From the NCBI GenBank assembly GCA_015139955.1, contig CP043991.1, positions 56,368-120,367 on the forward strand: a stretch of 64,000 nt of DNA. The letters run 5' to 3'. Shown here piece by piece: positions 1-64,000 of the stretch. Position 1 is the stretch's first letter. Each line of letters starts with the position of its first letter. The notes below the pieces were generated by a model. The model was not told where the DNA came from. It was given only the letters and a program-made list of their open reading frames with translations, and searched no databases. Origin of the DNA: Candidatus Stammera capleta. Its GTDB lineage: Bacteria; Pseudomonadota; Gammaproteobacteria; Enterobacterales; Enterobacteriaceae. A program made the translations under genes and the position numbers.

Positions 1-26
1 TCATAAAAGTAAAATAATTTTAATAT

Positions 27-1883
27 TTAAATTAATAATTTATTAGCTATATTACTAAAAGTTTTTTTTTTTTTTTTTATACTAGATAAAAAAATATTTT
101 TATCAGCATAAATAGTAACTTTTCTTTTAGCACGTGTAATAGCTGTATAAATTATTTCTCTACTTAATAAAGTAGAGAAATAATTAGGTATAATTAATAA
201 TATATGTTTAAACTCAGAACCTTGAGATTTATGAACAGTTACTGCTCATGTATTATTTCAATTAGTTAAATTAATACAATAAATAAATCTATTATTTTTA
301 TTTACATCTAAAAATAACAACTTAAATTTTTTTTTCAAAAAAATAAAAAAACCAACATCACCATTATATAATTTTAAATCATTATTATTTTTAGTAATAA
401 CTAATGGTTCACCCATATAATGATAACAATTTAAATTAGAAAAATATACTATATTTTTTACTAAATTATTTTTTAAAAAAAAATTGTTAATATATTTATT
501 TAAAAAATTAATTCCTAAATAAGTTTTTTTAATAACACAAATAATTTGAAATTTATTAAATACTTTCCATATTTTTTTGAAATTAAATTTTAAATTAATA
601 AAATTTATATAATTCATATAATTTTTTACACAAATATTTAATAAAAAATTAAAATTATATTTATCAGAATCATAAAAATTAAAATTATTTTTAAAATTAT
701 TTTCATATAAAAAATTATCTATATATTTTATATAACCTAATTTAATAAAATTAATAAATTTATATAAATAAATATTTTTTTTAAATCGATAATTTTTTTT
801 TAAAAAAAAAATATTATTTATATAAGATATATAAGTATTATTTTTGTTTTTTATATTTAAAACATTTCAAAATATTTTTTTTAAAATTCCAGATTTATAA
901 TATTTTTGTTTAGAATATAAATTACATATGATATTAAAAAATGAACCAGGTTCTATAGAACCTATTTGATTACTATCACCTAAAAAAACAATTTTTTTAA
1001 TATATTTAATAGAATTAAATAAATAAAATGCTAATGATATATCAATCATAGACGCTTCATCAATAATCAAAATATCAGTATTAATATTATTATTAATAAT
1101 ATTTTTATTATAATTAAAACCTAAAAATTTATGAATTGTAATAGCTTTTTTAGGTAATATTTTTTTAAAAGTAGAATTTATATTTAAATAATTATAATTT
1201 TTTTTTAAAGAAAAAGTAATATTTGAAGAAGATTTACCAGTAAAAGAAATAATTTTTATACAATTACTATGTTTAAATTTATATATTTTATATAGAACGA
1301 AAACCAATAAAGATATTAAAGTAGTTTTTCCTGTACCAGGACCTCCCGAAATAATAGTAAATTTATTTAAAATAACACCTATTACAGAAATTTTTTGATA
1401 TATATCTAAATTATATTTATCTAAATATTTTAATAAAATACTTTTATTAATAAAATTATTATTTTTTATAGAAAAATTTAAATTAATAAAATTAACAACA
1501 TATTCTTCATATATTCAAAATTTATATAAATAAATACAATTATTATAAAAAATTAAAGGAGTAGTTTTTATGTAATAATTTTTACTTAACACATTAAATT
1601 TAAATAAAATATTTATACAATCACTTAATGATAAATATTTTATAAAAAAATATTCTAAAAAATTTAATATATAATTAGAAAATATATCTTTACTAAAAAT
1701 ATTTGATAAAGAAAGACATATATTACCATTTCTACTTGATAAACTTACTAAAACAGCAAATAACATTATTATATCAGACTCAAAACTATTATTATCAAAT
1801 ATTTTTGAAAAGTATAAATCTATAAATTTAATTTCTTTTTTTTTAATACATTTAATTATAAAATTATTTATTTCACTAAACAT
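27..1883 (-). CDS. recD: RecBCD exonuclease V alpha subunit (RecD helicase)
   Basis: Track fragments 258-617, 867-1307 and 1515-1883 share one frame and are separated by TGA. Walker A ISGGPGTGKTT lies at about 1320-1350. The hand-translated C-terminus is WAVTVHKSQGSEF...YTAITRAK. TAA stop at 27-29. The ATG overlaps the recB stop (TAATG). Confidence 0.9.
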
Positions 1884-4800
1884 TAGTTTTTTTTAAAAAA
1901 ATAATTTAACTTTTTAATTAAAGAATAATTTGGTTTAGTATAAAAAATACCTGTAAAAGAATTATAATTATTATCTAATAATAAACCACGTAAAAATATA
2001 TAATAAATTCCACCAAAATTTATATTATAATCATATGTTTTAAGATTTAATTTTAAATAATTATGTAAAGCTAACGTATACAATTGATATTGTATATCAT
2101 AACGATGTAAACTAATAACTTTATATAAATCTTTATTAATATAATCAATATATTTATTACCTAATCAATTCGATTTATAATCTATTATAAAATATTTATT
2201 ATTATAAATACATAATAAATCAATTACTCCATTAAAAAAACCTGTAAAATTATTTTTATTTAATTGAATTTTTTGACTTAATTTAGAAATATAATCATAT
2301 TTTATAATAATTTTATTAAATTTTTTAAAATTAAATACATTTGTTATAGGTAAAAAAAAATCAAATTCTTTATAAAAAAAAGAAATATTTTTATTATTTA
2401 TACTAATATTATCAAATAATTTAACATTTAAAAAATTAAATAATATTCTTTTAATATTAAAAAAAAAAGTTTTAGATATATTAAATTTTAACATATTGTA
2501 TAAAATAATATTATTATCTAATAAATTTAAAAAATTAATTTTTTCTAAAATTTTATGAAAAAAATTACCGATATTTTTCCCTTTCGGTAAAAGAGAATTA
2601 TTATTTTTCTCAAATTCAAAATTATGAATATTTATTAAATTATTTGCATATAATTTATTATTAATAATATTAGAAAAATTTAAAACATATTTTTTATTTA
2701 TTGATGTAGAAAAAAAATCATTTTCTTTATTAATTTTTTTTTTAAAAAATATTTTTTTTTTTTTAAAGAAATCAATTAAATTTAAAAAATAAAAATTTAT
2801 ATATTTAAATTTAAAATAATTATTTATAATTTTTTTAATTTTACTAAAATTAAATTCTTTACCATAACCTAATAATCTACCTAAATATGTATAACAAAAT
2901 TTTTTATTTTTAATATTTAGTATATCATATACAAAAATATTACATTGATATATACATCTGGTAATAGCTACATAAAATAAACGCATTTCTTCAGAATCTA
3001 TTTCTTCTTTATAAAAAAAATAATTTTTTTTAAATTTATATAAATCTATATTAACCTTAAAATTTTTTCTATTATGAAAAATAAAATAATTATTATTTAT
3101 TTGAAAATTTAAAAAAAAAGGTAATCAAACAATATTATATTGTAAACCTTTAGATTTATGTATAGTAGAAATTTTTATACCATTTTCATAATTTAAAGAT
3201 CTAATATAATAATCTTTTTTATGTATATCAATATTTAAAATTTTATCATTTAATCAATAAATTAATAAAGATTCATTTTTTAAACTAAAAGATTTTTTTT
3301 CTAATATTTCTCCTATATGTAATATATTATTATAAAATAATTGGTTATCAATTTTATATATTTTTTTATTTTTTTTATCATTTAAAATATATTTAATCAT
3401 TACTAAAATACCATCTTTTTTTCAAATATTTTGATAAAAATAAAAAATATTAATTCATTTATTTAAAAAAATTTTATTAATAAGAATATTTTTCATTAAA
3501 TTAAAATTAAAATTAAAAAAAGAAGTAGATAAAGCACTAATTAATAGTGTAATAGAATCTGGATTAATAATAGATTTTAGTAAAAAAAATATTTCTTTTG
3601 CTTCATTAGTATGAAATACATTACTTTTTTCTAAAGAAGTATCAGTAGGTAAATTATATTTTTGTAAAGCATTAAAAATTAATTTAACTTCATGATTAGT
3701 ATGAACTAATATTGCTATATCTGAAGGAATTATTAATCTTTTAGATTTACCATTAAATAAAAACCTATTTTTATTATTTAATAAATAACATAATTTTATA
3801 GCACATATTTCGGCTAAATTATATTTTCATTTTTTTTTATCTAAATTTTTTAAAATAAAAAAAATTATACAAAAATCTTTCTTACTATTTTTTAATAAAA
3901 AAAAATTATTTTGTAAAGAATAATTAACATTTAAATATTTTATTTCTTTTAGTAAAAAAGGATTATTAATTCTACTAAATAAATAATTAATACTTTTAAC
4001 AAAATTTATAGAAGAACGTCAATTTATATTTAAAGTATATAAAAAATCTATATTTTTTTTAGATTTTATATAATTAAATATATTAGCACCTCTAAATGTA
4101 TATATAGACTGTTTAGGATCACCAATTAATATTAATTTAGTATTTAATTTAGTAAAATTATTTATGTATATTTTATAAAATATATTATATTGTAAAAAAT
4201 CAGTATCTTGAAATTCATCAATTAATAATATTGGAAAATTTTTTCTAATTATATTAATTAATATATGTTGTTTGTCTTTTATAAAATTAATATTTAAATT
4301 AGTAATTAAATCATTAAAACTAATATATGAATTTTTTTTTTTAATTTTAATAAGCATTTTTTTAATATATTTTATACAAAATATAATAATAAAATTACGA
4401 AAATCTTGTATTCTTAAAAAAATATTATCTACATATTTAAATAAATTAAAAAATTTTAAAATATATATATTATTATGTTTTTTAACTAAATATTTAAAAC
4501 TAAATTTTTTAAAACAATAAGGTAAAGTAAAATTTATAGTTTTTTCTTTACATCAAGACATAATTTTAGAAAATCATTTTTTTATATTTAAAAAATTAAA
4601 TATTTTTTGATTTATTAAAAAATTATAAATATTTTTATAATTCAATAATCAATAATTTTTAAATTTATTTATAAAAAATATAATTTTATTATAACAATCT
4701 TCTATAGAAGAATATTGATTTTTTATATTAAAAGGAAAATATAAAAAATTTAACATAGGTAATAAAAAATCAAATAGTTTTATAGGACTAATTCATATAT

Positions 4801-5341
4801 TTAAAATAATTTTAACTATATTTTGAGACAAAGATCCAAAATATTTACGTCAAAATAAAATTATAATTTCATAAATTAAATCATTTTCATTATCTATTAT
4901 AGTACTATTATAATCAATATTAGATTCAATAAAATTAGAATAAAGAATTTTTTTACAAAAACTATGTATAGTAAATACAGAAATATTATCTATATAATAT
5001 TCATAACTAGTTAATAGATCTATAATATTTGGAATATTTTTAACATAAAAATAAAAATCTTTTATAATATTATTAATATAATATCCTTTAATACAAGATA
5101 AACGTAAATTTTTAATATTATCTAAAATTCTATTTTTAATTTCTAACGTAGCTAAATCTGTAAAAGTAACAATTAAAATATTTTTAATAAATAAATTAGA
5201 AAATTTTTTTTCTATATTTATACCTAATAATAAACGTAAATATAATAAAGATATTAAATTAGTTTTCCCAGTTCCAGCAGAAGCTTCTATTAAATTAGTT
5301 TGACCTAAATAAATATTTAAAAAACTATTTTTTTTATACAT
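1883..5341 (-). CDS. recB: RecBCD exonuclease V beta subunit (RecB helicase-nuclease)
   Basis: Fragments 1883-2083, 2165-2986, 4019-4357 and 4850-5341 share one frame. I hand-checked 2987-4018 and found only TGA interruptions, no TAA or TAG. N-terminal LIEASAGTGKT, internal STIHKSKGLQYNIVWLPF, and C-terminal YTLALHNYLK...FGGIYYIFLRG are present. 1152 codons versus about 1180 in E. coli. Confidence 0.92.
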
Positions 5342-5345
5342 AAAC

Positions 5346-8300
5346 TTAAATATTCAAAATTAAATAATTAAACATAGTTAATAATCAATCTTCTGCTTTA
5401 TAAATAATAAAATCTAAATCTAACTTAAAATTAAATTTCTTTATATAATTATATATAAAAAAATTATTTAATTCACCACTAAAAAAATAATTACCATATA
5501 AAATATCTCTTAATTTATCTCTCATTCTATAAATAATAAAATTATTTAATTTATTTTTATTTATTAAATTATAAGTATTTCATAATCAAAAATGACTAGA
5601 TTGAGGTAAAAAAAAAATATTTTTTTCATTAAAATAATAATAATATATAATATATTTATATAAATATTTTTCAGATAATTTTTTATCTATAGGGGGAAAA
5701 CTTCACACACCATTATAACCATATATATAACTATATTTTTTACCTCCTAAACAACAATAAATTAAATGTTCTATCCAAAATAATAAAGCATCTACTAAAT
5801 TTAAATTTTTAGGTAATCATTTAACAACTCCATATTTAAAACATAAATTTATAGTACCATATAAATTAAAATCATATAATTTATAGAAAAAACTATATTT
5901 TTTTATATTTAAAAAAATATCTTTAATATTATTAATTAAAAAAATAATTTTTATTTTCTCTTGTTTTCATAAAATTTTTCCAAAAGAATTTATAGGTAAT
6001 ATATTTAAAGATTGTAAATAATACATAATATTATTATTTAACTTTTTATGTATAAAAAAATAATTTATTATATCTAATCTAAAAAAATAAAATTTTTTAA
6101 TATTAAACTGAAAAAAATTATTATAATTATTATTTTTATCATATATAAAATAATTTATTTTTAAAAAATATGACATAAAATATCTAATAGGATTAGATAA
6201 AAATAAAAAAAAATTATTTAAAGTAATTATTTTATTTTTTTTAATTTTAATTAGAAAATTATTATTTTTTTTATTTAAAATATATTTCTTTTTATCTAAA
6301 GAATAAAATTCTAGAAATATTTTATTTGTATTTTTATTTTTAAAAAAATATTTTCCTTCTAAATAATTTATAATACTTCTTACTAAAATAGAAGGAAAAT
6401 ACTTTATATGTTCTGAAAAAGAAAAATCTAAATAACTAATATAAACTTTTTCTTTAGCTGATAAAAAAAATTTCATAAAAATATATTTATCATAATCTAA
6501 TTTATTTTTATCTCCTATTCTAGGATTAGAATAAATTAAATCAAAGTTATAATTTAATTTATATTTAGGATAAATATTATCATTTAAACCTAAAAAACAA
6601 ATTATTTTAAAGGGTATTCCATGTAAACTTACATAAGAACTAAAATTTAAATGACTTAATGAATATCTTTTATTTTTTTTTTTTTTTAAAAAACTAATAA
6701 AAATTTTAGTAAATAAATTAATTGTAATTTTTTTTTTAAAAAAAAATAATTTATATTTTTGATATAAATAAAATCAAACTTTATGATTTAAAAAAAAATT
6801 ATTTTCAATAATATTTTCCGAAAAAAATACATTTAAAAAATTTTTACAAATTTTAATTCAATTACAAAAAAAATGTTTCTTTTTAAGAATATTTTTTCAA
6901 TAAAAAATTTTAAATATAAAATCAGATAATTTACCTATTAAATTATAAAAATAATTATTACTTATTGTTGGATAAGGAATTATATCATTTCAAGAACAAT
7001 ATTTTTCATTTATTGCATAACCTAACAATATACGTTTAATACTTTCTAATAAAGTAATATAATTAAATTTATATAAACTATCATTAATTAAAAAATTATT
7101 TATATCCACACAAATACCATCATTTTCAATAAAATTTAAAATAATATTAAATTCATTAATATTAATATTAAATTTATTTAAAAAAATTTCATTTTTTAAA
7201 AAATATAAAATTTTACTAAATGTAAATTTTACATTAGAAATATTTAATAAATCTACAAATAAATTTAATACTTTTTTATCAAAAATATAATTTTCTTCCA
7301 TAATATAAAATGGTAAATATTTTTTACATAATACATCAGAAAAAATAGTACGAATATATGGATAATATATATGCAAATCACTTACTACAATTAGTATATC
7401 GTTAACATAATATTTTTTTTTTTGAATTAAATTTAATAAAAAAAATTTTAATTTTAATAATTCATCTATATATCCACTAGCACTATTAATAATTAGTGAA
7501 TTATTATTATTTATTTTTTTTTTATTTAAAAATTTATTCAAAATAAAAGAATTTTTAAAATTTAAAATATCATTTTTAATGATATTTAAAATACTTTTTT
7601 TAGAAAATTGTATAAAACAATTAATTTCAATAAAATCAAATTCTTGAAATAAAAATAAATATTCAGCAAAAAATTTACAATTATTTAATAATAATGGATT
7701 TTTTTTATATAAAGTAAATTTAATTCCTTCAATATTTTTTTTTAAAATAAAAAAATTTTTTTTACTATAATTAAATTTATCAAATCAAAATTCAGAACTA
7801 GGATTAATTATAAAATAATGTACATTAATATATTTAGATAATATATATATAGTATTTAAATATATTGGAGGTAAATAGGAAATATTAAAAATATATAATT
7901 CAGAAATTTTTTTTTTTAAAATATTTAAATTAATTTTATTCTTTAAATTTAAAAATTTATAATAAATACTACATCTATTTCAATTACAATTAAACTTTTT
8001 ATTATAAAAATTAATAATTTCTCTTCATAAAAAAGATTGTCATAATTGATGAAAATTGTTTTTTAAATTATCTATTAAACCAAATTTTTCTCATTTATAT
8101 AATCAATCTACACGATACATTAAATATTTATCATAAATATCAGCTATTTTATAAGATATACTAAATAATTTATTATAATTAATATCATTAGATAAATATT
8201 TTTTGATTACTAAAAATTCATTAAAATGTAATAATTTAGGTAATATATTCATAATTACAAAAACTAAATTATTTTTTTCAAAAAAATAATCTTCAGGAAT

Positions 8301-8537
8301 ATCAGATATAAAAATTCTATAAATATTTCATATAAATTTAGCAGGTAAAAAAAAATCAAAATTAGCACAAATACCTAAATTTTTAGATAAAAACATTTTT
8401 AAAAAAAAAGATAAATTATGATCTGGTACCAAAATAATATTATTTGCTATATATTCACGCTTATTAATTTTTTTAAATTTATAAAGCAATACATGTTGTA
8501 ATATTTCTAAATCATTAGATTGATATAATATAAACAT
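5346..8537 (-). CDS. recC: RecBCD exonuclease V gamma subunit (RecC)
   Basis: Fragments 5967-6476, 6990-7541 and 8328-8537 share one frame. The N-terminus MFILYQSNDLEILQ resembles E. coli MLRVYHSNRLDVL. The hand-checked segment 7542-8327 (ADIYDKYLMYRVDWL, YLPPIYL) is broken only by TGA. TAA at 5346-5348, 4 nt before the recB start. Confidence 0.88.
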
Positions 8538-8541: not shown

Positions 8542-9015
8542 TTATAAAAAAAAATAATAAATAAATAAAATACATAAACAAAAATTAATTTTACTAATAT
8601 GAAAAAAAAATCATAAAGGACATCTTACTTTTATATTTAAAGGTCAAAAAAAATATATTCCTCTATAAGTAAACATATCAGCTATAATATGACTTAAATA
8701 TCCTAATAACATTCCTATAATTATATCTAAATTTAAATTTAAATAAATAAAATTTAAATAAAATAGAATAAAAAATAAAATTATTAAAAATAATAAACTA
8801 TGTGTAATTTTTCTATGAGTAAAAAAATTTCAATATATTAAAAAAAAAAAATTTCAATTTATAAAAGATTTGGGGTGATCTATATCTGGTAATAAACAAG
8901 TTATTAATCCAGCAAAAATTATATGTCATAAATCTATATAATGTAAAATACTAAAAAATTTTATAAAAAAAAATATAAAATAAATTGAAAATAACAAATG
9001 ATTTCTAAAATTCAC
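8542..9015 (-). CDS. ydjM: YdjM-like membrane-bound metal-dependent hydrolase (DUF457)
   Basis: Absent from the ORF track because TGA splits it. Hand translation gives VNFRNHLLFS...LLPDIDHPKSF...THRKITHSLL...GYLSHIIADMFT...FWPL, colinear with E. coli YdjM. A GTG start is assumed. TAA at 8542-8544. Confidence 0.7.
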
Positions 9016-9111
9016 TATATACCTACTAAATTAAATTTTTTAAAAATAATAAAAATAAAAAAAATAATAATTATATAATAATAATTATAAAATAATTACT
9101 TGGAACTTAAA

Positions 9112-10356
9112 ATGATAAAAACAAAATGTAAAAAAAAATACACATGTAAACATTCAAATAAAACAAATATAAATAATAAATGTGATCACAGAATTATAAA
9201 TAAACAAATTAATTTATATCATACAAATAAAGAAACTCCTGGAATAATATTTTGACATAACAAAGGATTTATTTTATTAAAAAATATTAAAAAATTATTA
9301 AGAAAAAAAAATGATCAATATAATTATATTGAAGTTCAAAGCGCATATTTAATAAATAAAAATATGTGAAAAAATAGTGGACATTGAAAAAATTATAGTA
9401 GTTTTATTTTTAGCACAATATCTGAAAAAAAAAAATTATGTATTAAACCTATGAATTGTTTAGGACATATAGATATATATAGACAAAAAAAAATATCATA
9501 TAAAAATTTACCTATAAGAATATCAGAATTTGGAATATGTCATAGAAATGAATACTCAGGATCATTGTATGGACTAATGAGAACAAGATCATTTACACAA
9601 GATGATGCACATATATTTTGTACAAAAAAACAAATTAAAAAAGAAATTACTAAATGTATAGAATTAATACAAGAAATATATAATATATTTAAATTAAAAG
9701 ATATTAGTATTTTTATATCTACAAAACCTAAAAAATATTTAGGTAATAAAAAAACATGAAAAAAATCAGAAAATCAACTTATAAATATTTTAAAAGAAAA
9801 AAACATTAATTTTAAAATCCAAAAAGGAGAAGGTGCTTTTTATGGCCCAAAAATAGAATTTGTTTTAAAAGATTCTTATAATAAAAAATGACAATGCGGT
9901 ACAATACAATTAGATTTTTATTTGTCAAAAAAATTAAACATAAATTTTTTAAATAAAAAAAATATACAACAAAATCCTATAATAATTCATAGAGCTGTAT
10001 TAGGTTCATTGGAAAGATTTATAGGTATATTAATAGAAAAACATAATGGTTGATTACCTACATGGTTATCTCCAATACAAGTTGTAATAATTAATATTTC
10101 TGAAAAACATAAAAAATATTGTAAATATATATTAAAATTATTAAAAAAAAATAATATTAGATCTATAACAGATTTTAGAAATAAAAAAATAAACTCTAAA
10201 ATTAAAAAACATACTTTACAAAAAATACCTTACATGATAGTATGCGGCGATAAAGAAATACTTTCTAAAACTGTTAATGTAAGAAAATTTAATAATTTTT
10301 CTATAATGAAAATAGAAAAATTAATAAAAAAAATTAAAAAAAAAAATAAATATTAA
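9112..10356 (+). CDS. thrS: Threonyl-tRNA synthetase, catalytic and anticodon-binding domains only
   Basis: ATG at 9112 is in frame with track ORF 9451-9759. Motifs seen: [63 protein letters not shown] and [16 protein letters not shown] at 10354-10356. The gene is 414 codons. An in-frame TAA at 9088-9090 forbids a longer N-terminus. Confidence 0.93.
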
Positions 10357-10370
10357 AGGAGAAAAAAATT
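10356..10370 (+). promoter_or_regulatory. Shine-Dalgarno AAGGAG followed by the non-canonical ATT initiation codon of infC
   Basis: AAGGAG at 10356-10361, 6 nt upstream of ATT at 10368-10370. The frame from this ATT gives an IF3-like N-terminus. There is no ATG, GTG or TTG in frame upstream of the conserved region. Confidence 0.7.
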
Positions 10371-10898
10371 ATTAAAATTTATAAAAAAATATATGTTGGT
10401 AAAATACATAGAATTAATTATGAAATAAAATCACCAATAATAAAAATAGTTGGAGAAAAACATAAAAATATTAAAATAATTAAAACTAATGAAGCAATTA
10501 AAATAGCTAAAAAAAATAATTTAGATTTGGTAGAAATTAATACTCATAGTACCCCACCAATATGTAAAATATTAAATTATGGTAGATTTTTATACAATAA
10601 AAAAAAGAAAAATAAAAAAAATAAAATTATAAATATTAAAGAAATAAAATTTAGACCTAGTACTAACATAAATGATTTTAATATTAAAATTAAAAATATT
10701 AAAAGATTACTTAAAAAAGGTAATAAAATTAAAATAATTATGAGATTTAAAGGAAGAGAAATAATACATAAAAATATAGCTTTAAATATGTTAAATAAAA
10801 TTAAAGAAAAATTATTAAATATATCACAATTAATATTTTTTTCTAAAAAAACTGAAAATAGACAAATTATTATGATTTTAAATCCTCAAAAAAAATAA
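10368..10898 (+). CDS. infC: Translation initiation factor IF-3
   Basis: IIKIYKK..HRINYEIKSPIIKIVGEK..LDLVEINTHSTPPICKILNYGRFLY matches IF3. Track ORF 10527-10898 is its C-terminal part. It sits in the canonical position after thrS. Confidence 0.9.
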   Translation: MIKIYKKIYVGKIHRINYEIKSPIIKIVGEKHKNIKIIKTNEAIKIAKKNNLDLVEINTHSTPPICKILNYGRFLYNKKKKNKKNKIINIKEIKFRPSTNINDFNIKIKNIKRLLKKGNKIKIIMRFKGREIIHKNIALNMLNKIKEKLLNISQLIFFSKKTENRQIIMILNPQKK

Positions 10899-53402: not shown

Positions 53403-53891
53403 TTAAGATTTATATTTTTTTACAACTAATAAAATACGTAATAATCTAAACAAAAAAAAATTTTTCAACATAAAAATAAGATACTTTAAAGATTTTTTTA
53501 CTGTAAACAAAAAAGATAATTTTTTATTTAAATCTAACGAAACTTTTTTACCATCTAAAGAAATAGATTTTAAAACAAGATTATTTTTATATTTATCTAA
53601 ATATTTAACTAAAACTTTTGATAAACCACAATAATTTTTAGTAGAAAAACCTAAAATAATAGGTCCAGACAAATATTTATTTAAATAACTAAAATTAGAT
53701 TTACGTATAGAAACTTTAAGTAAATTATTACGTATTACTATTAAATTAGCATCATTTTTTTTTATATCCCTACGAAATAAGTTTAATGCATTTGATGATA
53801 ATGTATTAAAACTTAATATAACTATAGATAAAGATTTATTTAATTTTTTTTTAATTTTATAAACAAATTTTTTCTTATCTACTCTTAACAC
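53403..53891 (-). CDS. rplJ: 50S ribosomal protein L10
   Basis: GTG start with GGAGG 7 nt upstream. 162 aa. It sits in the canonical position between rplA and rplL, and its length and basic composition fit L10. Confidence 0.88.
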   Translation of the reverse strand: MLRVDKKKFVYKIKKKLNKSLSIVILSFNTLSSNALNLFRRDIKKNDANLIVIRNNLLKVSIRKSNFSYLNKYLSGPIILGFSTKNYCGLSKVLVKYLDKYKNNLVLKSISLDGKKVSLDLNKKLSFLFTVKKSLKYLIFMLKNFFLFRLLRILLVVKKYKS

Positions 53892-53904
53892 TTATTTCCT
53901 CCAA

Positions 53905-54561
53905 TTAATTTAAATTAACCAAAAAAGATTTACCCATAGTACTAGAAATAAAAATTTTCTTCAAAAAAAACATATTTTTTAATTGCTTAGGTTTATTAGA
54001 TATAATTGAATTAATAAAACAAATAAAATTATCTAATAATTGGTTACTAGTAAAATTTAATTTACCAATTGTACTATGTATAATGCCAAATTTATCATTT
54101 TTATAAATTATTTTCCCTTTAACAAATTTTGAGATACTATTTTTTAAATCATCAGTAATAGTACCTAATTTTAAATTAGGCATTAAACCTTTAGGACCTA
54201 AAATTTGACCTAATTTACTAACTAATTTCATAGAATCTAAAGTAGATAAAACTACATCATATTTAATGGTATTATTTTTAACTTTATCAAATAAATTTTC
54301 CATACCTACAAAAAAAGCACCAGCAGAATAAGAAATTTTTTCTTTAGATTTAGGAGCAAAAACTATTACTTTTTTAGTTTTACCAAAATTATGAGGTAAT
54401 AAAACATTACCTTTAATAGTTTGATTTATATCTTTAGTATCTATAGATAAATTAATAGCTATATCTACAGATTCAATAAAATTAAATTTAGATTTTTTTT
54501 TAATATTTTCAAATATTTTTATTAAATCATCTTTATTAAAATAAAATTTATTAATATTCAT
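53905..54561 (-). CDS. rplA: 50S ribosomal protein L1
   Basis: ESVDIAINLSID, LGQILGPKGLMPNLKLGT and a canonical position support the call. Confidence 0.92.
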   Translation of the reverse strand: MNINKFYFNKDDLIKIFENIKKKSKFNFIESVDIAINLSIDTKDINQTIKGNVLLPHNFGKTKKVIVFAPKSKEKISYSAGAFFVGMENLFDKVKNNTIKYDVVLSTLDSMKLVSKLGQILGPKGLMPNLKLGTITDDLKNSISKFVKGKIIYKNDKFGIIHSTIGKLNFTSNQLLDNFICFINSIISNKPKQLKNMFFLKKIFISSTMGKSFLVNLN

Positions 54562-54575
54562 ATTAAATTTTTTAA

Positions 54576-55004
54576 CTAATTTTTAATTAAAACCCCCATA
54601 GAACGAGCAGTACCTATAATTGAACTGGATATTGATTCTAAACTAGAATTTAATACATCAGAAGATTTAATTTTAGCTATATTTAATATAGATTGTTGAG
54701 TAATATAACCAACTATATTATGACCCGGTTTATTAGAACCAGATTTCAGAGAAACTTCTTTTTTTATAAGATAAGAAACTGGAGGAGTTTTAGTAATAAA
54801 ACTAAAACTACGATCAGAATAAACAGTTATTATTACAGGTACAGGTATACCTTTATCTAAAGAACTAGTTCTTTCGTTAAATAATTTACAAAAATTTATA
54901 ATATTAACTCCTTTTTGACCTAATATAGGACCTACAGGAGGACTAGGATTAGCCATACCAGATAAAACTTGTAATTTAATATAAAATTGTATTTTTTTAG
55001 ACAT
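54576..55004 (-). CDS. rplK: 50S ribosomal protein L11
   Basis: [26 protein letters not shown] and [14 protein letters not shown] are present. Confidence 0.95.
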
Positions 55005-55028
55005 TTTTTTGAAATAAAATTAATAATT

Positions 55029-55577
55029 TTAATTATTTTTTTCTACCTGCGAAAAATCTAGTTCTACAGGAGTAGATCTACCAAAAATTAATACAGAAAC
55101 TTTTAAACGATTTTTATCATAATCTACCTCTTCTACTGTACCATTAAAATCTGAAAAAGGACCACTATTAACTCTAACTAATTCTCCATAATCAAATAAT
55201 ATTTTAGGTCTGGGTTTACCACTAATTTTTTGTAATTTATTTTTTATGAGCTTAACTTCTTTATCACTAATAGGACATGGATGACCTAAATTACCACCTA
55301 TAAAACCAATAATTTTAGGAACATTACGAATTAAATATCAATTTTTATCATTCATAACCATATTAATTAAAAAATATCCTGGATAAAATTTACGCTCACT
55401 CTTTTTACGTACACCTTTTTTTACTTCTATTACCTCTTCCGTAGGAATTAAAATATCTCCAAAATCATCTTTTAAACCATATAATCTAATATGATCTTTT
55501 AAATAATTAATAGCTTTTTTCTCAAAACTAGAAAAAACTTGTATTACATATCATTTTTTTTTTTTATTATCTATCAT
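55029..55577 (-). CDS. nusG: Transcription termination/antitermination factor NusG
   Basis: Not in the track. Hand translation gives [29 protein letters not shown] and the KOW motif [29 protein letters not shown] at 55029-55031. Confidence 0.92.
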
Positions 55578-55580
55578 ATT

Positions 55581-55949
55581 TTAGTTAAACCTCAGATTTA
55601 AAATAATAGAAATTATATATAATAAAAAATTATCAAATATTCATATTATAATGGAAATTAAAAAACTTAAAATAAAAACTACTAAAACTGTACTAATTAC
55701 TTCATATTTAGAAGGTCAAAAAATTTTAGTAATTTCTAATTTAGATTTTAGAAAATATAAAAAAATTTTTCTACCTAAATTAGTCGATTTAAATAAAAAA
55801 AAACATAAAAAAGAATAAAATATATTTAATATATATATAATTAAAAAACAAATATTGCAAAAAATAAAATTATTTATATATATTAAAACTAATAACAATA
55901 ATATAAAAAAATATATTTCTTTTGAATTTACTAAATAAATATTCATCAA
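55581..55949 (-). CDS. secE: Preprotein translocase subunit SecE
   Basis: A hydrophobic N-terminal part is followed, after a TGA, by KIFWPSKYEVISTVLVVFILSFLISIIIWIFDNFLL, which matches the conserved SecE C-terminal helix. It lies immediately upstream of nusG. Confidence 0.8.
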
Positions 55950-55971
55950 TATTTAAAAAAAAATTAATAAA

Positions 55972-57027
55972 CTAGATCTTAAAAAGATTATTTTTTTTAA
56001 TTAAAGAAAAATAATCAATAACTTTAATTTCGAGTTCTAAAAAAATATTAAATTTCTCAAATATCTTTTTTCTAACATATAAAATTAAAGAATAAATATG
56101 TTTTGGTAATGCATCACCTAAATTAACAATAATTAATGGTTGTTTTTGATACACTTTTGCTCATCCAATAGTATAACCTTTTAAACCACATATATCAATT
56201 AATAAAGCTGCAGGAATTTTTTTTTTACCTTTTATTATATTAATATCAATATAATCTAAAGAAGGAAAATATATATTTTTTATATATTGGTAATATAAAG
56301 TATTTACTATAGGATTTTTAAATATACTTCCAACATTACCTAACACATTTGGATTGGGTATTTTACTATTTCTAATTTTTAAAATTCTAGTATATATATC
56401 TTCTGCTGTAATACTAGTATCTGAAGGATCGAAAAAATTTAATAAATCTCTATATAAAAAACAAGGTTTTCATAATTTTTTAATTACTAAACCTACCTTA
56501 ATTATTATAAAACGATTATGAAGGAAATTTTTAAAAATACTATTTCTATAAGAAAAATATAAATCCTTTTTTTTTAAAAAAAATATTCTACCTGTATAAC
56601 AATCCAATATTTTTGCATAACTAAAAAAATCTTTAATTTCTAAACCATAAGCTCCAATATTATTAACAACAGCAGCACCTACAGAACCAGGTATAAAAGA
56701 TAAATTTTCTAAACCATATATACCATTATAAAGAGTAAAATTAACTAAATCTGTTCATAATTCTCCTGAATATATATCTAAAAATCAATAATTATTATTT
56801 TGTCTAATTTTAATACCTTTAATTCTATTAATTATAATAGTACCATAAAAATCATTTAAAAATAATATATTACTACCACAACCTAAAATTAAAATATATT
56901 CTTTTTTTTTAAAACTATTAAAAGATATTCTTTTTAAATCTCTAAAATTATCTAATATATATAAAATATTAAATTTTACATCAAGATTAAAAGTATTAAA
57001 TGTTTTTAAAGAATTATAACTACTCAT
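55972..57027 (-). CDS. murB: UDP-N-acetylenolpyruvoylglucosamine reductase
   Basis: Fragments 55972-56154, 56161-56346 and 56785-57027 share one frame. LILGCGSNILF, IIINRIKGI, GLENLSFIPGSVGAAVVNNIGAYG, YRNSIFK and GSIFKNP are present. TAG at 55972-55974. Confidence 0.9.
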
Positions 57028-57532
57028 AAAATTTATTAATTAATAAATGTTCATAAAAATAAATTTTTTTTACTTCAAATAAAAATAAATATTCTAAATT
57101 TCTCATAATTTTAAAATTTAAATATCCATCATGCTCAAAACCTAAAATATGTAATAAACCATGTATAACTAAATAAGAAAAATAAAAAAAATAATTAATA
57201 CTATTTTTTAAAGAGCGTTCTAAAACTACTAAAGGACAAATAATAATATCTCCTAAATAATTATTTTTAAAATTTTTAATATAAATATTCAATTTAAAAG
57301 GAAAAGATAATATATCAGTAACATAATATTTATTTCTAAACTTACTATTTAAGTATAAAATATAATTTTTATTTACTAAAACTATAGTAGTTTTTTTTTT
57401 AATATTAAAATAAATATACGATTTTGATAATCATTTATAAAAAAAAATTTTTTGAGGTAAAAAAAAACAATCACTACAATTATAAATAATTTTTAAATAA
57501 TTTAATACTAATAATTTATTATTTATTATCAT
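57020..57532 (-). CDS. ybeY: Endoribonuclease YbeY (rRNA maturation factor)
   Basis: VTDILSFPF and the zinc motif VIHGLLHILGFEHD are present. The ATG at 57530-57532, found by hand translation, overlaps the ybeZ stop by 14 nt. The TAG at 57020-57022 overlaps the murB start by 8 nt. Confidence 0.85.
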
Positions 57533-58187
57533 AAGCCTTAATTATATTAGCTACAATTGAAGAACGCATTATATCTTTAATACTAAAATAAGTAATACCT
57601 ACATCATGAAGATTTTTACATATATTAATAGCATGTTTTAACCCAGAAATAGATTTATTAGGTAAATCTATTTGAGATATATCTCCATTAATAACTGCTT
57701 TAGAATTAAAACCTAAACGAGTTAAAAACATTTTCATTTGGGTAATAGTAGTATTTTGTGCTTCATCTAATATTATAAAAGAATCATTAAATGTTCTACC
57801 TCGCATATATGCCAAAGGAACTACTTCAATAATATTATGAGAAATATATTTTTCATTAAAATGTGGTCCTAATATTTCAAATAAAACATCATATATTGGA
57901 CATAAATAAGGATTTATTTTTTGATTAAAATTTCCTGGTAAATAACCTAATTTTTCCCCCGCTTCTACAATAGGTCTAGCTAAAATTATTCTATAAATTT
58001 TTTTTCTTTTTAAAAAATCTATAGCAGTTGCAGTTGCTAAATAAGTTTTACCAGTACCAGATACACCTATACCAAAAGTAATAGTTTTATTTAAAATATT
58101 TTTAACATAATAAAATTGCATTTTAGTTTTAGGTTTTATTAAACTATATTTAGTTTTTAAAAAAAAAGAGAAATATTTTTTTTTCAT
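57519..58187 (-). CDS. ybeZ: PhoH-like ATPase YbeZ (core domain only)
   Basis: GVSGTGKTYLATATAI, ILARPIVEAGEKLGYLPG, PLAYMRGRTF, IILDEAQN and INGDISQIDLP are present. Intact 222-aa ORF, which I verified codon by codon. Confidence 0.88.
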   Translation of the reverse strand: MKKKYFSFFLKTKYSLIKPKTKMQFYYVKNILNKTITFGIGVSGTGKTYLATATAIDFLKRKKIYRIILARPIVEAGEKLGYLPGNFNQKINPYLCPIYDVLFEILGPHFNEKYISHNIIEVVPLAYMRGRTFNDSFIILDEAQNTTITQMKMFLTRLGFNSKAVINGDISQIDLPNKSISGLKHAINICKNLHDVGITYFSIKDIMRSSIVANIIKAYDNK

Positions 58188-58189
58188 TT

Positions 58190-59521
58190 TTAAATTAAAG
58201 TTCCGTATAAAGAATTTTTATATAATTTTATTATTTTTATATTAACTAATTGACCTAATAATTCTTTATTACCTTTAAAATAAATAATTTTATTATTTTC
58301 AGTATATCCATAATAAAAACCTAAATTTTTATTAGAAATATTTTCTACTAACACAGTTTGTGTAGAATATAACATTTTATTAAGTCAATAAATAGAATTT
58401 AAATACAGCAAATTATTAATTTTATTTAATCTATATTTTTTTTCTTCTATACTAATATTATCTAACATTTTAGATGATATAGTATTAGGTCTAGGAGAAT
58501 ATATAAAAACAAAACTATTATCAAATTTAATTTCTGATATTAAATCTAAAGTTAATTTAAAATCTTTTTTATTTTCAGTAGGAAAACCAACTATAAAATC
58601 TGAAGCAAAAATCATATTCTTTCTAATAAATAAAATTTTTTTAATTAATTCTTTATAATATTTAACAGTATAATTTCTACGCATTAATTTTAAAATTCTA
58701 TTTGAACCACTTTGAATAGGTAAATGTAAAAAATTAACTATTTTATTAATTTTACTATAAGTATTAATTAATTCATCTGTAAAATTATTAGGATGACTTG
58801 TTGTAAATCTAATTCTTTTAATACCTTTAATTTTAGAAATTAATTTTAATAAATCAGAAAAATTACATTTTTTATTATTTTTAAAAACACTACAATAAGC
58901 ATTAACATTTTGTCCTAATAAATTTACTTCTGAAATACCATATAAAGATAATCTACATATTTCAGAAATAATATTTTCTGGTAATCTACTAATTTCTTTA
59001 CCTCTAGTAAAAGGAACAATACAATAAGCACAACATTTATTACAACCTTCCATAATAGAAACATAAGATAAAGATCTTCTATTTAAATTAGTATTAAAAT
59101 CTATTGAAAAATCTTTATCTTTTTCAATATTTGAAAATTCCACATCAATAATTTTTTTTTTATCTTTTTCAAATTTTGAAATAAAATCAACAATTTTATG
59201 TAAAGTTTGAGGTCCAAAAACTATATCAACTATATTACTACGTAAAAATATATTTTCTTTTTCTTGTACTGAAACACATCCTCCAACAGCAACAATTATG
59301 TCATTATTTTTTTTTTTAATATCTTTAATTCTATCTAAAAAAAAAAATAACTTATCTTGAGCTTTTTGTCTTACTGAACAAGTATTTAATATAATTATAT
59401 TAACATCTAATAAAGAATTAACTATAATATAGTTATTATAATGCAAATAAAATTTAATTTTATTTGAATCATAATGATTCATTTGACAACCCCAAGTTTT
59501 TATATATACTTTTTTGTGCAT
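58190..59521 (-). CDS. miaB: tRNA-i6A37 methylthiotransferase MiaB
   Basis: VYIKTWGCQMNHYDS is present, with the radical-SAM motif GCNKCCAYCIVPFTRG and a TRAM-like C-terminus. Fragments 58190-58375 and 58385-59521 are joined by one TGA. Confidence 0.92.
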
Positions 59522-59561
59522 AAATATTTAATAAAAATTTATTTATAAATCAAAAAAAATA

Positions 59562-59635
59562 TAGCTACGACAGGAATTGAACCTGTGACCTCAGCGTTAT
59601 GAGTGCTGTGCTCTTACCAACTGAGCTACGTAGCC
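59562..59635 (-). tRNA. tRNA-Met (anticodon CAU, elongator type)
   Basis: The reverse complement is GGCTACGTAGCTCAGTTGGTAAGAGCACAGCACTCATAACGCTGAGGTCACAGGTTCAATTCCTGTCGTAGCTA. It is close to E. coli metT/metU as I recall them. No CCA is encoded. Confidence 0.9.
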
Positions 59636-59645
59636 ATTATTTATA

Positions 59646-59717
59646 CTGGGGTACCAGGACTTGAACCTGGGATCTCGGGATCAAAACCCGATGCCTTAAC
59701 CGCTTGGCTATACCCCG
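59646..59717 (-). tRNA. tRNA-Gln (anticodon UUG)
   Basis: The reverse complement is CGGGGTATAGCCAAGCGGTTAAGGCATCGGGTTTTGATCCCGAGATCCCAGGTTCAAGTCCTGGTACCCCAG. It is close to E. coli glnU. No CCA is encoded. Confidence 0.93.
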
Positions 59718-59722
59718 AAAAA

Positions 59723-59803
59723 TACGGAAGACGAGATTTGAACTCGTATACATAAAGTACTAGATCCTAATTCTAGTGCGTCTACCAATTTCGCCACTTC
59801 CGC
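59723..59803 (-). tRNA. tRNA-Leu (anticodon UAG)
   Basis: The reverse complement is GCGGAAGTGGCGAAATTGGTAGACGCACTAGAATTAGGATCTAGTACTTTATGTATACGAGTTCAAATCTCGTCTTCCGTA. It has a long variable arm and resembles E. coli leuW. No CCA is encoded. Confidence 0.93.
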
Positions 59804-59847
59804 AACAATAATTAGTAATTATATACACTTTATTATATTATATAAAT

Positions 59848-60732
59848 ATGAAAAATAAATTATTTTTATGAAATTTAGTTAAATATTGTAGTAATTTATT
59901 TAAAAATAAAAATATATATTTTGGTCACGGCACATATAATTCATATACGGAAGCTATACATCTTATATATTCAATATTAAAAATAAATATAACAAATAAA
60001 TTTAATAAAACTAAATTTATTAAAATAAATAATAAAAAGAGAAATAAAATTATTAAACTCGCTAAACTAAGAATTAAAAAAAAAATTCCTATAGCTTATA
60101 TTACTAAAAATATTTGATTTTGCAATAGAAAATTCTATATTAATTATGGTGCATTAATACCTAGATCACCAATATCTGAAATAATAAAAAAAAAATTTTC
60201 TTTTATTAAAAAAAAATATTATCCTAAAAAAATATTAGATTTATGTACTGGTAGTGGATGTATAGCTATTTCTTGTGCATATATTTTTCCAAAATCTAAA
60301 ATAGATGCAATAGATATATCTAAAAAAGCTTTAAAAATAGCAAAAAGAAATATTTTAATACACAAAAAAAATAATCAAATAAAATTAATAAAATCTAATT
60401 TATTTAAAAAAATAAATAAAAAATATGATCTTATAATTAGTAATCCACCATATATAAATAAAAAAGAAATAAAATATTTACCAAAAGAATATCATTATGA
60501 ACCTAAAATAGCTTTAGTAAGTAAAAAAAAAGGTACTTTTTTAATTCAACAAATTATTAATAAATCATATAAATATTTAAATAATAAAGGTTATTTAATA
60601 TGTGAAACAGGACATCAAAAAAAAAAAATTATAAGAAAAAATAAATTAATTAAATTTCATTGAATAAAATTTAAAAATAAAACACATCAAGTTTTTATGA
60701 TTAAAAAAAAAAATTTATTTAAACTTAAATAA
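59848..60732 (+). CDS. prmB: Ribosomal protein L3 glutamine methyltransferase
   Basis: Not in the track. Hand translation gives YFGHGTYNSYTEAIHLI, IPIAYITKNIWFCNRKFYINYGALIPRSPISE, LDLCTGSGCIAISCA, DLIISNPPYI and YHYEPKIAL, colinear with E. coli PrmB (YfcB). Confidence 0.8.
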
Positions 60733-61500
60733 ATTTATAAAATTTTTCATATTATATTGAATAACTTTATAAAAACTAATTTTTTTTAATTCAGCAATTT
60801 TTTTAAATATAAAAATAATTTTTAAAGGATTATTATTTACACCTCTATAAGGAACAGGACTTAAATAAGGAGAATCAGTTTCTACTAATAATCTATTTAA
60901 AGGAATATATTTTACAATACTTTGTAATAAAAAATTATTTTTAAAAGTTATTAAACCAGAAAAAGATATATATAAACCAAGATCTAAAAAATAAGATAAA
61001 ATTTTTTTATTATAATAACTATAACAATGTATAACAGCACCACAACTACTTATATCAAATTTTTTAATTATATTTAAAGTATCTTTATAACAATTTCGAG
61101 AATGTATTATACAAGGTTTCTTATATTTTAAAGAAAGATATAAATGATAAAAAAACATATCAATTTGTTTTTTTTTATCTTCTTTATTAAGTTTAATCTC
61201 ATAATCTAAACCGGTTTCACCTACTGCTATAATTTTATTATAAGAAATAAATTTTTCTAAATCTAAAAAATCATTTTTATTTATATTTTTAGTATAATAA
61301 GGATGTATACCACAAGATAATTTAATTATATCTATATAAGATACTCTGCTAAATATATTAAAAAAATTTTTTAAATTAATTGAAACAGTTAATAAATATA
61401 AAAATTTATTTTTTTTACATAAATATAATAATTCTTCAATATTCTTAAATTTTTTTTTATAATTCAAAAGATCAAGATGACAATGAGTATCAATTAACAT
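60715..61500 (-). CDS. ycfH: TatD-family metal-dependent hydrolase / DNase YcfH
   Basis: MLIDTHCHLDLL, GIHPYY, AVGETGLDY, IIHSR and ETDSPYL are present. It sits in the canonical position after holB. Confidence 0.85.
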   Translation of the reverse strand: MLIDTHCHLDLLNYKKKFKNIEELLYLCKKNKFLYLLTVSINLKNFFNIFSRVSYIDIIKLSCGIHPYYTKNINKNDFLDLEKFISYNKIIAVGETGLDYEIKLNKEDKKKQIDMFFYHLYLSLKYKKPCIIHSRNCYKDTLNIIKKFDISSCGAVIHCYSYYNKKILSYFLDLGLYISFSGLITFKNNFLLQSIVKYIPLNRLLVETDSPYLSPVPYRGVNNNPLKIIFIFKKIAELKKISFYKVIQYNMKNFINLFKFK

Positions 61501-61504
61501 AGTT

Positions 61505-62458
61505 TTATTTATTTAGATGAATTAAATTATATATATTATAAGATAAATCATAAATTAAAATTTTTTTATTAAAATTTAAATTACTTTTAATTTTATTAAT
61601 ACAAAAAAATATTTTTTTTATTATTAAATTTATATTTTTAATACATATATATTTATTAATTTTTTTTAAAATATCAACAGAATCTAAATTATATATTTTA
61701 TTTGTATATTTATAATTCATAGAATCAAAAAAAAAAGTATATAAAATATATAAATTAAAATCTATTAAATAATTACTTAATATATCAATAATATTGATAA
61801 CATCTATTAAAAAAATATTTTTAATCATATTTAATATTTTAATTCTAAAAGATCATTTTTTTTTCAAAAATGCTAAAGCATCTAATGGTGAATTAAAATT
61901 TAAACGAATAGAAGTTAATATATTTTTTTTACTAAAATTTAATTTATTACTTATTCATTTATATGTATATAATTCTTTAGGAATTAATAAATTATATCTA
62001 TGACATCTACTTAAAAAAGTTAAAGGAACATAATTAGAATTTAAACATGAAAATATCAATATTAATTTATAATCTGGTTCTTCCATTAATTTTAATAAAT
62101 AATTAAAAATAAAAGGATTATTAAAGTTAAAATCAATAAAATAAATGATTTTAAAAAAACTAAAATATAAACTTTTATTTAAAAAAAAAATAATTTTTTT
62201 AATAAAAAAAATATTTAAATTTTTATTTTTTACTATAACAAAATTAGGATGACTATAATTATCAATTAAACTACAATTAATACAATTATTACAAATATTA
62301 TTATTTTTTTTTAAACATAAAATTCATTTTACTAATTTTAATACTAAATAATTTATACCTAAATTACATGGATAGTATATTAAAAAATTACAATTTTGAC
62401 ATAACATTAATTTAGAATTAATTATTTTATTATATAAATCATTTAATCATGGATACAT
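61505..62458 (-). CDS. holB: DNA polymerase III delta-prime subunit
   Basis: The N-terminus MYPWLNDLYNKI resembles E. coli MRWYPWLRPDFEKL. LLKLMEEPDYKLILIF and LSRCHRY are present. The C-terminal fragment 61505-61828 shares the frame. It lies between tmk and ycfH, as in E. coli. Confidence 0.75.
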
Positions 62459-63087
62459 TTTTTGTTTAATCATAAAAATAATTTATTTTTTAATTCTAAA
62501 AATATTTTTTTTTTACATAAATTACCATTTAATTCTATAATATTAGATAGATTACTAAAATAATTTTTATAAAAAAAATTAATTTTATATAAAAAACTTA
62601 TACCTTGAGACTCAATAAAATCAAGATTTTTAAATTTTAATAAACGTTGTATAGCTATTAATGGAGAAATATTTAAATAAAAAGTTAAATGAGGATAAAA
62701 ATTAATAAATTTTTTATTTAATAATAAAATAATTTTTTTCTCTATATTTCAACCACATCCTTGATAAGCTAATGTACTTACATAAAATCTATCAGATATT
62801 ACATAATATCCTGAATTAATAGCTGGAAGAATTGTTTTTTCAATTAATTGAACACGAGACGCATATATCATAAGTAATATAGATTTTTTTGATATCATAG
62901 AATAATCAACATTTTTTGAAAATATTAAATCACGTATTTTTTCAGAAAAATTATTACCTCCAGGATCTCTTACTAATAAAACTTTTTTAATACCCAGAGA
63001 ATATAAAATTTTAACTAAAAAACTACATAAAGTAGATTTACCAGAACCATCTATACCTTCTACAACAATAAATTTATTAACATACAT
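62443..63087 (-). CDS. tmk: Thymidylate kinase
   Basis: FIVVEGIDGSGKST, LVRDPGG and ISDRFYVSTLAYQG are present. Read through TGA codons to TAA at 62443-62445. It overlaps the holB start by 16 nt. Confidence 0.9.
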
Positions 63088-63171
63088 AAAATTATTTTTT
63101 TATATTACCAATTTACATTAATAATGATATATTATACATTATAAATATAAACATAAACTAAGAGAAAATAA

Positions 63172-63768
63172 ATGTTAGTAAATAAAATAGCTCCTGATTT
63201 TAATGCACAAGGAGTAAATAAAAAAAATAAAATTATAAAAATAAATTTTTGAGAAAAAATTAATAATAAAAATACAGTACTGTTTTTTTGACCATTAGAC
63301 TTTACATTCGTTTGTCCATCAGAAATATTAGCATTTAATAATAGATATAAAGAATTTTCAAAAAGAAAAGTAAAATTAATAGGAGTATCTATAGATTCAG
63401 TATATACACATATAGCATGAAAAAATACACCAATTAGTAATGGTGGTATAGGTAAACTTAATTTTAATATAATATCAGATATAAAAAGAAAAATACAAAA
63501 AATTTATAAAGTAGAACATAAAGATACAGGAACATCATTAAGAGCAACATTTATAATCGATAAAAATAAAATTATTAGACATCAATCTATAAATGATTTA
63601 CCTTTAGGTAGAAATATAGATGAAATTATTAGATTAATAGATGCAATAAATTTTAATGCAACAAGTAAAAAAGTATGTCAAGCACAATGGGTTCCGGGAG
63701 ATGAAGGTATTACGCCTAATTATAAAGGTATATGTGAATTTTTAAAAAATAATTATAAAAAAATATAA
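63172..63768 (+). CDS. ahpC: Typical 2-Cys peroxiredoxin (AhpC/Tsa family)
   Basis: Not in the track. Hand translation gives [53 protein letters not shown] and the resolving-Cys region [14 protein letters not shown] at 63766-63768. Confidence 0.85.
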
Positions 63769-63773
63769 AAAAT

Positions 63774-64000
63774 ATGGATTGAAAATTTAATTTTTATTTA
63801 AATACAAGTATAATATTACTCTTTGTAATACTATTTTATGGTACTGTAGTATACCCATATATAAAAAAAAAAAATAAAAAAAAAGATATTATAAATAATT
63901 TAAAAACAAACGACGAAATTTTAATTAAAGGAGGAATAATAGGAAAAATAATAAAATTAAAAGATAAAAAATATATTATTTTATTAATTAATAATAAAAA
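63774..64000 (+). CDS. yajC: Preprotein translocase subunit YajC (3-prime end beyond the window)
   Basis: MDWKFNFYLNTSIILLFVILFYGTVVYPYIKKKNKKKDIINNLKTNDEILIKGGIIGKIIKL. It has a single transmembrane segment, then the basic stretch and the GD-x-V-x-T-x-GG-like motif of YajC. It is truncated by the window edge. Confidence 0.8.

Follow-up and report, generated by a model that had tools for sequence, protein, structure and literature searches.

Candidatus Stammera capleta, which lives extracellularly in the foregut organs of Cassidinae leaf beetles, is one of very few Gammaproteobacteria that decode UGA as tryptophan. We analyzed a 64,000-nucleotide stretch assigned to this symbiont (contig CP043991.1, positions 56,368 to 120,367; called the window below, and making up about one fifth, or ∼21%, of a chromosome of ∼305 kb) and found that UGA is decoded as tryptophan along its whole length. 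The reassignment is credited to Salem et al. 2017 in those parts of PMC8629427 (a Codetta screen), PMC10540940, and PMC13462651 that deal with Stammera. Two papers from 2026 are among those that count Stammera with the established UGA-to-tryptophan bacteria. Translation table 4 (code 4) was applied to Stammera annotation in 10.1101/2023.12.12.571295, and its use is routine across the ∼50 public Stammera genomes. The reassignment has thus been known since 2017, and the window confirms a documented case and adds nothing new to it. According to a survey of 49 Stammera genomes (PMC13462651), the genomes measure 0.22 to 0.34 Mb at 13.9 to 20.4% G+C, UAA makes up 88 to 97% of the stops, a tRNA-Trp with the anticodon CCA is present and one with UCA is absent, and prfB, the gene for release factor 2 (RF2), is found in 15 genomes and missing from 34. 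Three independent surveys give the Stammera tRNA-Trp anticodon as CCA, never UCA, and the anticodon stem of this tRNA is a normal one of 5 bp (PMC13092985). A basal clade of five genomes was assigned the standard bacterial code (table 11, or code 11) with prfB kept in the gTranslate preprint (10.64898/2026.05.24.727570), which also reports prfB in some code-4 assemblies. All but five Stammera genomes are judged to use code 4, leaving ∼10 that combine prfB with code 4. Stammera is therefore unusual in being recoded with both the anticodon and the stem of tRNA-Trp unchanged, and in having code-11 and code-4 strains within one named species.

Other symbionts have arrived at the same codon meaning with different equipment (PMC10540940, PMC13462651). 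Candidatus Zinderia insecticola, a spittlebug symbiont from another class, the Betaproteobacteria, resembles Stammera in reading UGA as tryptophan, in its extreme AT content, in the loss of prfB, and in a tRNA-Trp with the CCA anticodon. However, the anticodon stem of that tRNA has 4 bp, which has been offered as a decoding adaptation, compared with 5 bp in Stammera (PMC13092985). Candidatus Hodgkinia cicadicola, Candidatus Nasuia deltocephalinicola, and the Mycoplasmatales likewise have reduced genomes, have lost RF2, and read UGA as tryptophan, but they do so with a mutated tRNA-Trp(UCA) that Stammera lacks, and Hodgkinia is GC rich. The other case within the Enterobacterales is the leech symbiont Candidatus Providencia siddallii PSAC, in which UGA occurs at tryptophan sites and tRNA-Trp(CCA) is unchanged. 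PSAC is at an early stage, with UGA in ∼20% of its genes, prfB present, and ∼9 genes that may stop at UGA, whereas TGA occurs in 43 of 55 open reading frames (ORFs) in the window and none of them stops there.

Decoding of UGA in the window

With code 11, the whole window yields 9 ORFs of at least 300 amino acids, the longest of 787 amino acids; when TGA is taken as sense, there are 23, and the longest reaches 1408 amino acids. Taking TAG as sense in place of TGA brought no gain in long ORFs. The code-4 map consists of 55 non-overlapping ORFs of at least 80 amino acids that occupy 92.5% of the window. Four genes fell outside this map owing to small size or a non-ATG start (infC, rpmI, rplJ, and a ydjM-like ORF), and adding them gives 59 genes covering ∼96%. 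In-frame TGA occurs 162 times in the 55 ORFs and 168 times in the 59 genes, with only 15 TGG codons, and TGA makes up ∼92% of the tryptophan codons. Summed over both codons, the tryptophan content is 0.90%, a plausibly normal value for an AT-rich symbiont. TAA ends 49 of the 55 ORFs and TAG the other 6, and all four added genes end in TAA, in agreement with the original prediction, which had counted 59 complete genes closed by TAA or TAG and never by TGA. Gene interruptions under code 11 are exclusively TGA, never TAA or TAG, and would cut 41 of the 55 ORFs within the first 90% of their length. Annotation of the window therefore requires table 4; table 11 would miscall those 41 genes as fragments or pseudogenes.

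The products were aligned by BLASTP with 35 orthologs from E. coli K-12, in two sets, after each TGA of the window had been masked as X so that it could not influence the alignment. Tryptophan stood opposite 56 of 70 TGAs in the first set and 11 of 15 in the second, a total of 67 of 85 (79%), for which the binomial P is 1.4e-115 given that tryptophan is 1.04% of the reference residues. In the reverse direction, taken for the first reference set only, E. coli tryptophan faced TGA 56 times and TGG six times. The single TGA of rplT and both of those in pheS were opposite tryptophan, as was one of the three aligned TGAs of pheT. ORFs called with code 4 stop, at TAA or TAG in every case, no more than a few residues from where the orthologs stop; none of the genes therefore depends on TGA for termination. 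UGA is decoded as tryptophan throughout the window, and only UAA and UAG terminate.

This is what the original prediction had proposed from the letters of the DNA, and the 11 coordinates that it cited are all in-frame TGA, or TGG where it said so. Its view that the TGAs sit at invariant tryptophan positions needs one correction: thrS 10051-10053 is opposite phenylalanine in E. coli. In ung, TGA is the last sense codon, with TAA directly after it, and the product ends in PIIW; we take this residue to match the C-terminal tryptophan of E. coli Ung. The ung genes of the related strains L010 and L095, introduced below, likewise have TGA at or beside the gene end.

A different amino acid at UGA would have precedents, with glycine (code 25) known from Gracilibacteria and Absconditabacteria and selenocysteine found sporadically in bacteria. 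Among the 85 residues facing TGA there were one glycine and no cysteine, which rules out code 25 and selenocysteine; moreover, 168 sites in 59 genes are incompatible with selenocysteine insertion dependent on a selenocysteine insertion sequence (SECIS), and sister strains carry TGG in place of TGA. We regard glycine, selenocysteine, or cysteine at these sites as refuted by this residue spectrum and give them practically no weight. The same alignment statistics dispose of the idea that the genome is decaying, rich in pseudogenes, and standard in its code, with the TGAs being sequencing errors or genuine nonsense mutations. Code 11 does fragment most long genes, and reduced symbionts do accumulate pseudogenes, but TGA is the sole interrupter, 79% of the TGAs lie on tryptophan columns (P of ∼1e-115), and two other strains keep TGA at the same sites. 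A 14-kb contig from the independent Logan assembly of SRR10017629 matches window positions 45257-59291 with 100% identity. The probability of decay or error as the explanation is, in our judgment, vanishingly small.

Readthrough of UGA stops that depends on their context was also considered and dropped. The base following TGA (+4) has the same distribution as the base following all codons (p = 0.28), and TGAs are distributed evenly over the length of the genes, neither of which indicates such readthrough.

Relatives of the window and exchange of TGA with TGG

The RpoB protein translated with code 4 has a 100% identical counterpart on a 304,737-bp contig at NCBI. The next matches are ∼35 relatives on contigs of 212 to 325 kb, at 66 to 93% identity, followed at 64 to 67% by named symbionts of the order Enterobacterales, among them Buchnera, Riesia, Arsenophonus, and the symbionts of Donacia. 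In a neighbor-joining tree of RpoB, a single gene analyzed with no bootstrap, the small genomes (0.21 to 0.33 Mb) are monophyletic and the window (P0001) is nested well inside a clade that includes P0024. The latter sequence is contained exactly in the RpoB of CP144813.1 (L010), the 246,187-bp chromosome of Candidatus Stammera capleta isolate DOCHLPPF. The strain of the window is divergent from CP144813.1, with 69% identity in RpoB, and the subclade of the window has genomes of ∼297 to 312 kb.

Twenty consecutive genes, from lepA to holB, are collinear between the window and L010, which has the same G+C content (16.8%) and in-frame TGA as well. The same 20-gene order is found in CP144793.1 (L094) and CP144825.1 (L095). 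The murB-secE and rpoC-trpS-ung junctions are common to the window and these three strains and absent from E. coli; judged from gene order, the murB-secE junction is a derived one shared with named Stammera. On the basis of the RpoB clade and of shared gene order that includes junctions not seen in E. coli, the sequence identifies the window as a segment of the chromosome of Candidatus Stammera capleta, a reduced, extremely AT-rich symbiont from the Enterobacterales. The 16.8% G+C of the window and the 304,737-bp chromosome with the identical RpoB are both within the published Stammera ranges. The window thus agrees with Stammera in RpoB clade, 20-gene synteny, G+C content, a size of ∼0.30 Mb, TGA as tryptophan, and stops dominated by TAA; no tested feature differs, which makes it a member of the lineage and not a look-alike. 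The original prediction had spoken of an Enterobacterales-like endosymbiont. The Enterobacterales part stands, whereas "endosymbiont" is loose wording because Stammera is extracellular in the foregut organs.

For comparison between strains, codons were aligned over the 20 shared genes with TGA and TGG both masked. The window and L010 have TGA in common at 25 sites and differ by TGA/TGG swaps at 8; with L095, which has in-frame TGAs of its own, the corresponding numbers are 29 and 9. The nusG gene of L010, for instance, contains no TGA and two TGG codons. In most strains, then, the two codons act as synonyms. L094 is the other extreme, an early-branching strain that shares the gene order and the clade and has a chromosome of similar size, at 303 kb. 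It has no site at which TGA is shared with the window and carries TGG at 25 window TGA sites. No in-frame TGA was found in the 24 kb of L094 (1-24008) that were compared with window positions 38804-63768, and TGA was the stop of none of its 20 syntenic genes. The local G+C content of L094 is 21%, compared with 17% in the window. This strain looks like a member of the code-11 lineage described in the gTranslate preprint (10.64898/2026.05.24.727570), although CP144793.1 is not listed in the text of the preprint; that early-branching lineage keeps prfB according to the literature.

The shared TGA sites, the TGA/TGG swaps, and the exclusive use of TGG in L094 together imply that UGA was reassigned within the Stammera clade. 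In the 20 genes of L094, TGA is neither stop nor sense, as is expected from the codon-capture model, which reportedly goes back to Osawa and Jukes. L094 resembles a stage marked simply by the absence of TGA. The contrast between the window and L094, reproduced here at one locus, makes Stammera well suited as a natural system for the study of stop-codon capture, a point already present in the literature.

Route to the reassignment

Taking the window data together with the literature and with the codon-capture model, we think it very probable that this code-4 Stammera chromosome reached its present state by codon capture, with tRNA-Trp(CCA) reading UGA. AT mutational pressure would first have replaced TGA stops by TAA, and RF2, left without a job, would then have been lost in most strains. 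With no release factor acting at UGA, the ordinary tRNA-Trp(CCA), charged by the tryptophanyl-tRNA synthetase (TrpRS) from trpS of the window, would read the codon through a C34-A wobble mismatch. Wild-type E. coli tRNA-Trp is able to read UGA at low frequency. The modified nucleoside 2-methylthio-N6-isopentenyladenosine at position 37 (ms2i6A37) would probably stabilize the anticodon loop of tRNA-Trp, and miaB, which encodes the methylthiotransferase, is retained. Mutations from TGG to TGA would from then on be neutral and could drift to near fixation under AT pressure.

Several points tell against this account or limit its reach. The 18 of 85 TGAs that are not opposite tryptophan face phenylalanine, valine, tyrosine, leucine, alanine, lysine, and others; such partners are expected at variable sites, and they are no proof of tryptophan there. 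No tRNA-Trp gene was found by ARAGORN or Rfam in the window, with its ∼21% of the chromosome. E. coli RF2 gave no tblastn match, with table 4, in the window or L010, and the absence of RF2 is accordingly established for that ∼21% of the chromosome and for L010 only. MiaB acts on tRNAs reading UNN codons, tRNA-Trp included, and, to judge from E. coli genetics, ms2i6A37 may assist the reading of UGA. However, miaB is present in L010, L094, and L095 as well, and because L094, which uses only TGG, keeps it too, the gene is not a specific adaptation. Finally, prfB is reported in the ∼10 code-4 genomes mentioned above; the mechanism thus does not everywhere involve loss of RF2, and the strain of the window could be among those genomes.

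That the strain of the window does combine code 4 with prfB and an unaltered tRNA-Trp(CCA) with its normal 5-bp stem strikes us as rather unlikely, although it deserves some weight; the content of the window speaks neither for it nor against it. If it were so, either the RF2 still encoded would have to be neutralized or an unrecognized adaptation would have to let the near-cognate tRNA read UGA efficiently; it might lie, for instance, in parts of tRNA-Trp other than the anticodon arm, in the modification of tRNA-Trp, or in the ribosome. Such a strain would stand naturally midway between the "codon capture" and "ambiguous intermediate" routes of code change. The same genomes bear on a test put forward in the original prediction, which had held that an intact prfB together with only tRNA-Trp(CCA) would speak against UGA as tryptophan. 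In Stammera, that test does not discriminate and would give a false negative, because the tRNA-Trp is CCA only, prfB is found in 15 of 49 genomes, and all but five of the genomes are judged to use code 4.

A related reading is that UGA is ambiguous, with prfB kept elsewhere on the chromosome and the codon serving partly as stop and partly as tryptophan, as has been proposed for PSAC. The presence of prfB in 15 of 49 Stammera genomes, just 5 of which are judged to use code 11, is in its favor, as are the unchanged CCA anticodon of the lineage and the ∼21% share of the chromosome in the window, which leaves room for prfB elsewhere. However, TGA occurs in 43 of the 55 genes, including rpoB, rpoC, recBCD, and several aminoacyl-tRNA synthetase (aaRS) genes, and frequent termination would be lethal with 41 of 55 cut in the first 90%. 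No gene of the window needs a TGA terminator, there is no +4 context signature, and TGA supplies 92% of the tryptophan codons, compared with ∼20% of genes affected in PSAC. We therefore consider ambiguity improbable.

The commonest bacterial route to code 4 is a dedicated tRNA-Trp(UCA), as in Mycoplasma and Hodgkinia, and such a gene could lie outside the window, where the tRNA-Trp of this strain must in any case be sought. The three surveys that give CCA and never UCA in Stammera make this source of UGA reading very unlikely. Codon capture by tRNA-Trp(CCA) remains our preferred explanation.

Gene content of the window

The genes of the window are listed in Table 1. The four tRNA genes, for Ser, Met, Gln, and Leu, were found by both ARAGORN and Rfam, and no pectinase gene is present within the window; Stammera pectinase genes are mostly plasmid borne.

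Table 1. Genes of the 64,000-nucleotide window and their in-frame TGA codons (numbers separated by commas follow the order of the genes; Trp, tryptophan in the E. coli ortholog)
Feature	Position	Strand	TGA	Remarks
recD	27-1883	-	4	2 of 4 opposite Trp; alignment nearly full length
recB	1883-5341	-	12	No TGG; 10 of 12 opposite Trp
recC	5346-8537	-	17	15 of 17 opposite Trp
YdjM-family membrane protein ORF	8542-9030	-	5	PF04307
thrS (catalytic and anticodon-binding domains only)	9112-10356	+	6	Includes 9253-9255 and 10051-10053; 5 of 6 opposite Trp
infC (non-ATG start), rpmI	10350-11102	+	0	Both stop at TAA
rplT, pheS, pheT, ihfA	11115-14964	+	1, 2, 4, 1	
YghX/dienelactone-hydrolase-family protein	15006-15734	+	6	GFC-W(TGA)-GG
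Bax1-I family membrane protein	15743-16471	+	5	
ppa	16808-17323	-	2	16874-16876 and 16856-16858; both opposite Trp
pmbA	17403-18752	+	4	
fbaA, pgk	19032-21319	-	4, 1	pgk TGA at 20396-20398; 5 of 5 opposite Trp
PLD-family nuclease, fldA, murI, PgpB-like phosphatase, RNase Z/BN	21361-24903	mixed	1, 4, 0, 7, 1	
pfkA, class-I aaRS ORF, dksA, speE, speD-like	25120-29827	+	1, 7, 0, 0, 1	speE has 2 TGG
map	29830-30579	-	1	29920-29922, opposite Trp (DGWTVKTK)
rpsB, tsf, pyrH	30676-32808	+	4, 0, 0	rpsB: 3 of 4 opposite Trp
tRNA-Ser(UGA anticodon)	32816-32898	+		ARAGORN/Rfam
NIF3-family protein, cardiolipin-synthase-like PLD protein	32913-35056	mixed	3, 5	PLD protein has 2 TGG
folA	35083-35586	+	5	Includes 35146-35148; 4 of 5 opposite Trp
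ligA, gltX	35592-38706	mixed	2, 6	
lepA, lepB, rnc, era, ung	38804-43682	+	1, 5, 0, 0, 5	ung at 43029-43682
trpS (tryptophanyl-tRNA synthetase)	43683-44672	-	3	TIGR00233
rpoC	44687-48892	-	7	2 TGG; includes 48188-48190; 5 of 6 aligned TGAs opposite Trp
rpoB	48942-52970	-	3	Includes 49143-49145
rplL, rplJ, rplA, rplK	53008-55004	-	0	Stops TAG/TAA
nusG, secE	55029-55946	-	2, 2	4 of 4 opposite Trp
murB, ybeY, phoH	55972-58187	-	4, 1, 0	
miaB (ms2i6A37 methylthiotransferase)	58190-59521	-	1	TIGR01574, 478 bits
tRNA-Met(CAU), tRNA-Gln(UUG), tRNA-Leu(UAG)	59561-59804	-		ARAGORN/Rfam
prmB, tatD/ycfH, holB, tmk, peroxiredoxin C	59848-63768	mixed	3, 0, 4, 2, 3	

The recD-recB-recC region at the left end of the window is a full set, all of it full length, retained in a genome of ∼0.3 Mb. 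Its G+C content, 12%, is also the lowest in the window, and its products are 22 to 29% identical to those of E. coli; 33 of the TGAs are held there. The rpoB-rpoC region (44000-52000) has 24% G+C, compared with 12 to 17% elsewhere, and its GC skew is strongly negative. Purifying selection on these highly conserved proteins is the probable reason. The start codon of rpoC is GTG (48890-48892, minus strand) according to the Logan gene call.

The threonyl-tRNA synthetase (ThrRS) encoded by thrS has 414 amino acids and aligns with E. coli residues 241 to 631. Pfam recognizes only the class II core and the anticodon-binding domain, without the N-terminal TGS and editing (tRNA_SAD) domains, and the space upstream of thrS is occupied by the YdjM-family ORF on the opposite strand. 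From this domain content, the enzyme has presumably lost proofreading of Ser-tRNA(Thr). Downstream, infC (10350-10898, plus strand) overlaps the thrS stop and lacks a start codon of the ATG, GTG, or TTG type. ATA (10350) and ATT (10368) come first in frame after the upstream stop, reminiscent of E. coli infC with its autoregulatory AUU start.

The class I aaRS ORF of 537 amino acids is probably glnS, as read from an N-terminal motif. The PLD-family nuclease (21361-21900, minus strand) is small and NucT-like (PF13091), with a hydrophobic N terminus resembling a signal peptide, and is an unexpected retention for so reduced a genome. In L094, the stretch that separates ung from era contains a gene for a FUSC-like membrane protein of 608 amino acids (20327-22153). 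The window, L010, and L095 lack this gene, which exemplifies the additional genes carried by the larger early-branching genomes.

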